Of a stretch of 64,000 nucleotides of DNA, positions 50,095-52,693 are shown piece by piece (positions within the stretch are counted from its first letter, which is position 1; each line of letters starts with the position of its first letter). Where the stretch lies: the IMG/VR virus record IMGVR_UViG_3300045988_083460; one strand, 5' to 3'. Both the position numbers and the translations under genes were made by a program. The notes beneath the pieces were generated by a model. The model had not been told where the DNA came from, did not search any database, and saw nothing but the letters and a program-made list of their open reading frames with translations. Source of the DNA: a virus.

Positions 50095-50949
50095 ATGGGA
50101 TATAGTATCAAAAAACATAGTCTCTATTCTTATGTTCAAATTGTAACAATTCCCTTCACAGACATTGAAAAAATTGACTTTGCCTTATGCAATCAACCGA
50201 CGGAAACTCCAGATGCTTATTATAAAAGACAGGCTACTAAACCAGATATTATTACTAATGGAGGTTTCTTTGCCATGAATAATGGCAACACTTGCTTTAG
50301 TTATAAAGACGAAGGAACTGTTATTTAGTCTGATTTTCGCCATGGAGTTGCAATTAGCGGCAATAAAACACTTATATATACAACATTAAAAGATTATGAA
50401 ACCGCTAGAGATTTTATCGCAGCTTATCCTGCATTAATTGTAGATAGCAAAAAAGTAGTTATAACAGATGGAAAAGAATTAGATTATAAAGCCCGCAGGA
50501 CTTGTATTGGATGGAATAAAAATAATTATTATATTGTAACCGTAGATTCTCCAGGTCTTGTTTATGCTGCCCTATAGCAAATTTTTCTTGAATTGAAAGT
50601 AGAATATGCTATTAATTTAGATGGAGGCGGATCTACTAGATTACTAATAGATGGGAAAAGAAAAACTTCTCAAATTTATGCAAGACCAGTTGATAATGTA
50701 ATGTGTGTATATTTTAAGAAAGAACAAGAGGTAGTTCTTTACAGAGTTCAAGTAGGAGCATTTCTATCTAAAACCAATGCAGAGAATATGTTAAAGGAAT
50801 TGGAAGAGAAAGGATTTAGCGGGTATGTCAAGAAAGTAGGAATTTTTTATAAAGTTCAATTAGGTGCTTTCTCTGTGAAATTAAATGCAGAAAGACTAAA
50901 AGATAAATTAAAATCTGCTGGATATAGCTCTTTCATTACAAAAAAATAA
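50095..50949 (+). CDS. phosphodiester glycosidase (DUF2233/NAGPA-like) with two C-terminal SPOR domains; 2 in-frame TAG
   Basis: NGGFF and NLDGGGST motifs; two SPOR-like repeats (YRVQVGAF..., YKVQLGAFS...); frame open through TAG 50326 and 50575. Confidence 0.6.
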
Positions 50950-50951
50950 AA

Positions 50952-52361
50952 ATGACTAATGCTCAAATTATTTGGAAATACTTTAAAGGCAAAGGTTTTA
51001 GTGATTGCGGAATTGCCGGTTTAATGGGTAATCTTTATGCCGAAAGTGGTCTTAATTCTATTAACTTATAGAACACCTATGAAAAAAAATTAAAAATGAC
51101 CGACGCAGGATATACCTCCGCAGTTGATGATGGAAGGTATAAAAACTTTGTAAAAGATGGGGCGGGATATGGATTGGCTCAATGGACATTTTGGAGCAGA
51201 AAACAAAATTTGCTTTAGTTCTGTCAAAGTCGAGGTAAATCCATTGGAGATTTAAATACTCAATTAGATTTTTTATATTAGGAGTTAATTACAAGTTTTT
51301 CTAGTTTAGTTAAAATTTTGATTTCTGCCACTTCTGTCACAGAAGCCTCTACCGCAGTATTACTCTAGTTTGAAAGACCTTCAGACTAGAGTTTTTCTAT
51401 GCAACAAAAGAGAGCTAATTATGGTCAATAGTATTATAATAAATTTGCTAACATTTCAAATGTAATTGAAGGAGGTAATAAAATGAAATATAGCGATAGC
51501 AATAAACCACTTCAATGTATGATGACAAATAGCACTTGCTATAAACAAACACGCACCATGCAAGTTAAAGGAATCTTATGGCATAGTACTGGTGCAAATA
51601 ATCCTAATTTAAAAAGATATGTATAGCCAAGCGATAATGATCCTAACTACACCAGTTTAATAAATAAATTAGGAAAAAATACTAGCAAGAATGACTGGAA
51701 TCATATATCTGTTCAAGCTGGATTAAACTGTTGGATTGGTAAATTGGCTGATGGAACAGTAACAACAGTATAGACAATGCCATGGAATTATCGTCCTTGG
51801 GGATGCGGTTCTGGGTCTAAAGGTTCTTGTAATAATGGATGGATTCAGTTTGAAATTTGCGAAGATGGATTAAATGATGCAAATTATTTTAACAAAATTT
51901 ATGAAGAGGCTTGTCAAATTACTGCTTATTTATGTAAAATGTATAACATAAATCCATTGGGAACCACTACTTTAAATGGTATCACCGTTCCGACTATTTT
52001 ATGTCATGCTGATAGTCACAAGCTAGGATTAGGATCTAATCATGCAGATGTAAACCATTGGTTTCCAAAATTTGGGAAAAGCATGGAAACCGCAAGAACA
52101 GATGTTTATAATTTAATGTCAAATATCTAGGAGGATGATGAAGATATGACTGACGAGAAATTCGCTGAACTTATGAATACTTGGCTTACTAATAAAGCTA
52201 ATGAAAAAGAAACTTGGGGCACCGATAATCTTGAATGGGCTAAAGCGAATGGGATTATGGCTGGAGACAGTGCTGGAAGAATGATGCCAAATAAATTCTG
52301 CACTAGATTAGAAACTGTAACTATGTTAAGAAGATTGGCTGAAAAGCTGGGTTTAAAATGA
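50952..52361 (+). CDS. endolysin-type fusion ORF: lysozyme-like domain + N-acetylmuramoyl-L-alanine amidase (amidase_2) + C-terminal SLH-like domain; 9 in-frame TAG; internal RBS+ATG at 51483 and 52146
   Basis: codon-by-codon check shows frame 0 is open from ATG 50952 to TGA 52359 with only TAG codons; GIAGLMGNLYAESGLN...GYGLAQWT; amidase_2 region 51483..52127; C-terminal WAKANGIMAGD...TRLETVTMLRRL is SLH-like. Confidence 0.6.
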
Positions 52362-52693
52362 AAAAATTAGAATTTTCCAAAAAACTTATAAATGATATTC
52401 GTATGTTATTATGGGTCGTGACTGTGTCAGGTATCCTTTTGGCATTTATGTGTGTTTATATGGGATATTTAGGAACCCTTCCATGGATTAGTGCTCTTGT
52501 TGGTCTACCATGGAGCGCCCACGGAGTAGTTTGTTCTTTTTATTTAGCAATGGCTAAATCAGATCACAAAAAGGGCGGCATTACTTATGACCTAGCTTTA
52601 AAAGAAACTGAATTCAATTCTGCATATAACATCCCCGCAGAAGATTTTTCAGCCTCTAATGATATTCCCATTGATCTCGATGGTCCTATTTAA
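52358..52693 (+). CDS. holin-like membrane protein
   Basis: two TM helices then charged C-terminus; follows lysin genes. Confidence 0.5.
   Translation: MKKLEFSKKLINDIRMLLWVVTVSGILLAFMCVYMGYLGTLPWISALVGLPWSAHGVVCSFYLAMAKSDHKKGGITYDLALKETEFNSAYNIPAEDFSASNDIPIDLDGPI

Follow-up and report, generated by a model that had tools for sequence, protein, structure and literature searches.

The stretch of viral DNA analysed here, referred to as the window, is 64,000 nucleotides (nt) long (IMG/VR virus record IMGVR_UViG_3300045988_083460), and the region examined in it, positions 50095-52693 together with the flanks, is a lysis cassette. The central gene of this cassette is, judging from its sequence, one gene for a three-domain endolysin: a PF18013 domain (“phage tail lysozyme”), followed by an Amidase_2 domain and one S-layer homology (SLH) motif. 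The gene has nine in-frame TAG codons and appears to be written in genetic code 15, in which TAG is read as glutamine (Gln). The explanation which we consider the best, and which we hold with reasonable confidence, is that of one code-15 endolysin gene with two internal starts in addition to its own, probably giving three nested products; in this explanation the virus is a large phage of gut Clostridia. The features concerned, in which J1 and J2 denote the two internal starts, are the following.

50952..52361, + strand: endolysin gene, 469 codons, nine TAG read as Gln, TGA stop at 52359-52361

50958..51446, + strand: PF18013 “phage tail lysozyme”, residues 3-165; 121.5 bits against a cut-off of 28.2, E 4e-35; six TAGs

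51471..51485, + strand: J1, GGAGG at 51471, a 7 nt spacer and ATG at 51483 (Met178); predicted product of 292 amino acids (aa), amidase plus SLH

51555..52010, + strand: Amidase_2 (PF01510), residues 202-353; 45 bits against a cut-off of 26; two TAGs, at the invariant Gln225 and Gln274

52128..52148, + strand: J2, TAG (Gln393), GGAGGA at 52130-52135, a 10 nt spacer and ATG at 52146 (Met399); predicted product of 71 aa, the SLH alone

52215..52313, + strand: single SLH motif (PF00395), residues 422-454, with GIMAG and TRLE motifs

27478..27553, + strand: suppressor tRNA with the anticodon CTA, which reads TAG (ARAGORN)

Relatives were collected by a scan of IMG/VR (80 loci), from bacterial genome contigs and from GenBank phages, giving 129 related loci overall, and 33 relatives of the window's endolysin were aligned codon by codon. 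Domains were assigned by Pfam on the translation in which TAG is Gln, tRNAs were found with ARAGORN, and GenBank phages were compared by tblastn.

From the ATG at 50952 the frame contains no TAA, no TGA and no frameshift over 1407 nt, and is broken by the nine TAGs only. This agrees with an earlier note on this DNA, made from the letters alone, which had described one such frame ending at TGA 52359, had called its domains lysozyme-like, amidase_2 and SLH-like, and had taken it for a single reading unit needing amber suppression; the codon check bears out the first of these claims, searches with hidden Markov models uphold all three domain calls, and the tRNA with the CUA anticodon encoded in the window fits the need for suppression. 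In the lysozyme domain, Glu31 is invariant in 34 sequences, and for the amidase H211, H352, H364 and C351 are invariant in the aligned relatives. The SLH motif, present once per polypeptide, falls just short of the Pfam cut-off of 20.8 bits in a scan of the full-length sequence (19.8 bits) and exceeds it in a scan limited to the C-terminal 71 aa (23.7 bits). Five of 12 homologous C-termini match Pfam (best E 4e-8), and a profile built from the 12 homologues of this C-terminal domain matches the SLH domain of Bacillus anthracis Sap (3pyw/6bt4) with an E of about 2e-6. Numbered along the 71-aa product, the SLH residues are W31, G36-I-M-A-G40 and T53-R54-L-E, of which G36, G40, T53 and R54 are invariant in the 12 homologues and match the GIIxG-like and TRAE-like motifs listed in PMC12285257. 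The motif is predicted to be a module for binding wall polymers and for oligomerisation.

The nine TAG codons are at 51069, 51216, 51279, 51366, 51387, 51429, 51624, 51771 and 52128. Six of them (codons 40, 89, 110, 139, 146 and 160) are within the PF18013 envelope and two (codons 225 and 274) are within Amidase_2, so that the only TAG in a linker is codon 393. At codons 40, 146, 225 and 274, nearly all of the 33 aligned relatives have CAA or CAG, with Q225 and Q274 being invariant; the remaining TAG positions face variable sense codons in the same alignment. The TAGs also track the other Gln codons of the endolysin gene, the mean relative positions being 0.37 and 0.35, respectively. Among its Gln codons there are 13 CAA, 1 CAG and 9 TAG, and this TAG share of 39% is among the highest in the window. 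The acceptor stem of the tRNA-CUA (GCGGA/TCCGC) and its G73 resemble those of the window's tRNA-Gln(TTG) at 19296-19369, from which we infer that the tRNA-CUA has Gln identity. In-frame TAGs are found in other genes as well, i.e., in tail-fibre-like genes at 21797-26025 and in two homing endonuclease genes (six in the HNH and eight in the GIY-YIG gene), while one ThyX-like and one ATPase gene have a single TAG each, and there are none in the replication-type genes of the window. The counts of CAA/CAG/TAG are 12/0/8 in the GIY-YIG gene and 6/0/5 in the tail-fibre-like gene at 23490-24662, and in late genes TAG seems largely to have replaced CAG as the Gln codon ending in G. By these alignments and codon counts, the endolysin gene is a code-15 gene and its nine TAGs would be ordinary Gln codons. 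The total length of open reading frames (ORFs) under code 15 versus code 11 was left unused, as it does not discriminate: reading TGA as sense raises the length equally.

The suppressor tRNA lies near the end of an array of 31 tRNA genes (10092-28612), which also includes a phage transfer-messenger RNA at 16747-17062 with the tag peptide DNDYFENYLAA. The homing endonucleases, at 39126-39998 and 59596-60507, are among the most TAG-rich genes in the window; these selfish elements have taken up the code of the phage.

The first internal start, J1, lies between the lysozyme and the amidase: Met178 sits between PF18013 (3-165) and Amidase_2 (202-353). The J1 set comprised 57 unique coding sequences, which represent 19 lineages (at 85% identity or more), and in 57/57 of them there is a GGAGG or GGAG, followed at 6-11 nt by an invariant ATG (MKY...). 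The residues encoded at this Shine–Dalgarno (SD) sequence vary (EGG, KEE, KGD, TGG, QGG, RGD), and when all in-frame starts were ranked by computed pairing with the anti-SD sequence, J1 came first or second in each of the 19 lineages. This phage mostly uses GGAGG as its ribosome-binding site (RBS): the + strand has 68 instances and the - strand has 18. At about 25 loci in Clostridia (L094-L118; Oscillospiraceae, Lachnospiraceae, Acutalibacteraceae and others) a stand-alone amidase gene, with various other C-terminal modules, begins exactly at the equivalent of Met178, with its own SD sequence and with a stop just upstream. Thus, J1 is the start of a once complete endolysin gene, kept when PF18013 was fused to its front, and this comparison shows that the three-domain gene originated by such a fusion; the J1 product would be a natural, self-sufficient enzyme. 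The PF18013-SD-ATG boundary is also present in phage FP_Lagaffe (L002, 2480-4063) and in MT835491 (L003), upstream of different amidases, and the boundary may travel with domain shuffling.

The second internal start, J2, lies between Amidase_2 and the SLH motif (422-454), and the TAG at 52128 supplies the first G of its GGAGGA. In the J2 set, which comprised 10 viral lineages and 12 genome loci, all members with the SLH module (10/10 and 12/12, respectively) have GGAGGA and an ATG (GTG in L025) at a spacing of 7-10 nt; the motif is absent from relatives with a different binding domain. The codon preceding GAG-GA is GAG, ATG, TAG, CAG or AAG, and these codons have in common the G at the third base alone. 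The Glu codon of J2 is GAG in 10/10 lineages, although in the rest of these genes only 4-65% of Glu codons are GAG (frequencies that multiply to 2e-6), and in the lineage in which GAG is 4% of Glu codons elsewhere (L042), GAG is still used at J2. The anti-SD pairing of J2 ranks first to third in 10/10 lineages. The TAG next to the second SD sequence is explained by two circumstances: the SD sequence needs a codon ending in G at that position, and the G-ending Gln codon of this phage is mostly TAG. Thus, the two internal sites with an RBS and an ATG to which the earlier note had drawn attention are real, in the sense that they are conserved at the nucleotide level (J1 in 19 lineages, J2 in 10) under differing amino acids. 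The peptides predicted for the J2 region are NIQEDDEDMTDEK, which spans codon 393 and has Gln there, and (f)MTDEKFAELMNTWLTNK, which is the N-terminal peptide from J2 and is preceded by Asp.

The proposed sequence of events would be as follows. The phage would read TAG as Gln by means of its own tRNA-CUA, and ribosomes would initiate at 50952, but also at 51483 and at 52146, giving products with a common C-terminus: a full-length protein of 469 aa, for which nine suppressions would be needed, an amidase plus SLH of 292 aa, for which three would be needed, and an SLH of 71 aa, for which none would be needed. SLH binding modules are three-pronged, so chains with one SLH motif each are expected to associate; the single SLH motifs would bring the isoforms together, and full-length and shorter chains might form a trimer-like wall-binding unit. 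By analogy with LysBT1 (described below) and SlpA, such assembly of isoforms through single SLH domains is plausible.

Several points weigh against three nested products. The proposal of internal initiation is drawn from conservation, and predictions of internal translation starts are in part false (in the study of Pinto et al., PMC9430671, 15% of portal genes came out as positive). J1 could be a relic of gene fusion. At J2, the spacer in the lineage of the window is 10 nt, which is longer than typical and compares with 7 nt in most relatives, and, with linkers rich in Gly or in acidic residues being common, the conservation could in part reflect selection on the protein. As for the code, the Gln identity of the tRNA is argued from the resemblance of acceptor stems and from the alignments.

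These points favour the alternative that TAG is Gln and that the gene is one gene, from which only the full-length protein is made, J1 being a relic of the fusion and J2 a by-product of coding a linker. J1 does correspond to the ancestral start of a stand-alone amidase, GGA-GGN and GAG-GAT are natural in linkers of this kind, and false positives among predicted starts are to be expected. However, the SD core has been retained while the residues it encodes have changed (EGG, KEE, KGD and RGD at J1; E, M, Q or K before ED at J2), GAG is preferred to GAA at J2 in every lineage, even in L042, the start codon is either an unchanging ATG or a GTG, and the J2 motif goes missing together with the SLH module. 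We therefore regard production of the full-length protein alone as unlikely, though it deserves to be taken seriously.

The earlier note had proposed something different, namely, that the TAGs sit exactly at domain and gene junctions and act as a switch, with termination giving separate proteins and suppression giving a fusion. Three observations speak for this: TAG 52128 directly adjoins the GGAGGA and ATG 52146, the frame after ATG 52146 is free of TAG, and TAG 52128 is retained in the five viral relatives that are at least 91% identical (L005-L008 and L078) and in L085 (85%). However, eight of the nine TAGs are inside the envelopes of the catalytic domains, several of them at invariant Gln, and only one is in a linker. 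The chance that at least one of nine TAGs among 469 codons lies within six codons upstream of either internal start is estimated at about 20%; thus, the adjacency of TAG and start is not beyond what chance would give. Termination at the TAGs would cut the lysozyme at codon 40 and the amidase 47 codons after ATG 51483, and with both truncated so early neither a functional lysozyme nor a functional amidase could be made.

The relatives argue in the same direction. In 33 of the 80 IMG/VR loci, all of them standard-code relatives, the whole three-domain protein is encoded by one ORF without any in-frame TAG, TAA or TGA, which contradicts the view that TAG decides between separate proteins and a fusion; others of these loci have 1-16 TAGs in the endolysin gene, and no relative has a TAA or TGA inside the endolysin ORF. 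Among GenBank phages compared by tblastn, FP_Lagaffe and MT835491 (both standard code) have the lysozyme and the amidase in one ORF, and in Dulem virus 33 (standard code) a single ORF covers the amidase and the C-terminal domain found in the window. Codon 393 is TAG only in L005-L008, L078 and L085; it is CAG in Dulem virus 33 and GAG, ATG, AAG or GTA elsewhere, and a TAA or TGA is never found there. Even recoded relatives have a sense codon there (GTA in L086, 78% identical; GAG in the L011 clade). The second linker reads ATA-CAG-GAG-GAT-GAT-GAT-ATG in Dulem virus 33 and ATC-TAG-GAG-GAT-GAT-GAA-GAT-ATG in the window. Thus, the arrangement of TAG, RBS and ATG is not conserved at the level of the TAG, and sense codons at this junction are the finding which the earlier note itself had named as counting against its model. 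We consider a TAG-dependent switch very improbable.

That the TAGs are true stops in decayed or fragmented lysis genes of a standard-code genome has next to no probability: under table 11 the frame does fall into short pieces, but the TAGs face conserved Gln, the frame is otherwise uninterrupted, the catalytic residues are intact, a tRNA-CUA is encoded, the other late-type genes carry in-frame TAGs while those of replication type carry none, and five near-identical viral relatives keep the arrangement of the window.

We return to the code-15 gene with two internal starts and its bearing on the timing of lysis. The earlier note had suggested a timer that links lysis to the abundance of the suppressor tRNA. 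This idea is reasonable and has already been published: recoded stops in lysis genes were proposed to delay lysis until suppressor tRNA is available (Borges et al., 10.1101/2021.08.26.457843). The cassette fits that pattern and adds nothing new to the idea. With nine, three and no suppressions needed for the three products, the ratio of isoforms, and above all the amount of the full-length form with two enzymes, might depend steeply on the level of suppressor tRNA, and no suppression might be needed for making the SLH-only subunit or, possibly, the product of the overlapping holin-like gene described below. None of the 14 Gln codons in the SLH segments of three independent recoded lineages is TAG, and in pooled recoded lineages TAG accounts for 23/71 Gln codons in the lysozyme segment versus 12/80 (Fisher p = 0.013), which is a weak hint. 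Against such a link, the TAGs of the window's gene follow the distribution of Gln without positional bias, the SLH segment of the window has no Gln codons at all, and the other TAG-containing genes of the window have no 5′ bias of TAG (p = 0.69). A steep dependence of this kind seems to us improbable.

Two kinds of known system are brought together in this gene. The first is the lysis gene of recoded gut phages using code 15 (Borges et al., 10.1101/2021.08.26.457843; the phAss-1 group, PMC10607447; crAss-like phages, validated by metaproteomics, PMC9523058). As in those phages, TAG is found at conserved Gln, a tRNA-CUA is encoded by the phage, TAG is concentrated in late, structural and lysis genes and missing from those of replication type, and recoded and standard-code lineages are closely interleaved; unlike those described, the window belongs to a different phage lineage. 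The second kind is the endolysin gene with in-frame internal starts, which is frequent in phages of Gram-positive bacteria (PMC9430671). In type 1 the start is between two catalytic domains (2638A ORF007, Ms6 LysA), and in type 2 it is between the catalytic and the wall-binding domain (Lys170, CTP1L, CD27L and LysIME-EF1, a group for which heteromers have been demonstrated) [Pinto et al. 2022, PMC9430671]; the isoforms of the phi2638A endolysin heterodimerise (PMC12203907). In common with these endolysins, the window's gene has an SD sequence and an ATG in inter-domain linkers, at positions conserved in the cluster, and C-terminal isoforms with a common stop are predicted. It differs in having both positional types, from which three nested products are predicted, and in that its binding module is a single SLH, a type that is unmentioned in PMC9430671. 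In the literature searched, no description was found of a gene combining both types of internal start, which is not proof of absence. The gene is both a code-15 lysis gene and an endolysin gene with internal starts, and no new mechanism of recoding is revealed.

Three individual proteins can be compared with that of the window. LysBT1, from a Brevibacillus thermoruber prophage, consists of an amidase and a single C-terminal SLH, which mediates trimerisation and surface binding (PMC12285257). Compared by layout and motifs, the window's protein likewise has an amidase and then one SLH with a conserved Trp and the GIIxG-like and TRAE-like motifs, whereas LysBT1 is without an N-terminal PF18013, is without a reported internal start and is encoded in the standard code. 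The FP_Lagaffe endolysin (AUV56383.1) has a PF18013 domain with 51% identity over residues 3-211, followed at the same boundary by CAA-GGA-GGT-AAA-ACC-ATG, but continues with a different amidase, a SPOR domain and further C-terminal sequence. The “PGrP protein” of Dulem virus 33 (XCD07637.1) has an amidase and an SLH, with 45% identity over residues 187-467 and CAG-GAG-GAT-GAT-GAT-ATG at the second boundary. Of the three modules of the window's protein, each of the latter two proteins shares only two.

The endolysin gene is flanked by the following features.

50045..50072, + strand: terminator-like hairpin with T-run, after a PhoH-like gene; upstream edge of the cassette

50095..50949, + strand: gene for a NAGPA phosphodiester glycosidase with SPOR (PF09992, 71.9 bits; PF05036, 58.2 bits); TAGs at 50326 and 50575

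52358..52693, + strand: gene for a small membrane protein, holin-like, 111 aa; hydrophobic at about residues 16-48 with an acidic tail (hydropathy); no Gln codons

52695..52733, + strand: terminator-like hairpin of 17 pairs with T-run; end of the cassette

The upstream gene had been described as a phosphodiester glycosidase with TAG and two SPOR domains; the enzyme and the TAGs (two) stand, and there is one SPOR domain (residues 216-282), within which both of the similar YxVQxGAF segments fall. No relatives but the closest ones (L005-L008, L078) have this gene, and other members of the clade have the endolysin gene directly after the PhoH-like gene; with this restricted occurrence it looks like a recent insertion. 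From its domains, it would be an accessory wall enzyme. SPOR domains bind glycan strands from which the peptides have been removed, a preference in keeping with action after the amidase; perhaps this enzyme detaches wall polymers linked by phosphodiester bonds.

The holin-like gene is conserved downstream of the endolysin gene in 46 loci, and its protein had no match in Pfam, PHROG or NCBIfam. Its ATG overlaps the TGA of the endolysin gene (ATGA, 52358-52361) and its own SD sequence is weak; its translation could be coupled to ribosomes ending the endolysin frame, including those that started at 52146 on the TAG-free part. In the L011 clade, the match to the holin-like homologue begins about 40 nt downstream of the stop codon of the endolysin gene, which suggests that the ATGA overlap is not conserved.

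Sigma-70-like promoters were not enriched (17 found, 16 expected), and an Rfam scan of 49500-53500 gave nothing but a match to pntA, which at 29 bits stays below the gathering score of 54. A hairpin in the lysozyme domain at 51362-51392 (13 bp and a T-run, folding free energy -17.1 kcal/mol, z -5), which spans the TAGs at 51366 and 51387, was considered as an attenuator; among the relatives, the closest have it unchanged, L008 (91% identity) has a degraded form and more distant ones lack it, and the candidate was dropped as lineage-specific or fortuitous.

With regard to the phage itself, blastn of 50000-52800 against GenBank phages gave no DNA match, and the best GenBank phage match of the neighbouring PhoH-like protein is 40% identical; on these comparisons, the lineage appears to be an uncultured one without a close relative in GenBank. 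Two of the recoded endolysin copies are on contigs of about 148 kb that were binned in metagenome-assembled genomes, one assigned to Eubacterium and one to Oscillospiraceae across the pair: L085 (CALCFD010000051.1, 147,780 bp; 12 TAGs, 85% identity) and L086 (CALWOP010000177.1, 148,971 bp; 7 TAGs, 78% identity). These are probably phage genomes caught in the bins of their hosts, which hints at the host group.

For annotation, this means that a region which fragments under the standard code is to be called as one code-15 endolysin gene, and that the TAG beside an RBS is here a Gln codon chosen because the SD sequence needs a G. This endolysin family is widespread among gut Oscillospiraceae and other Clostridia, in their phages and prophages, and is a well-conserved candidate for the use of two internal starts in one gene and for assembly through single SLH motifs. 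If this is true, the idea of the two-polypeptide endolysin would extend to three products and to binding domains of the SLH type, which would be of relevance to the engineering of lysins against gut Firmicutes.

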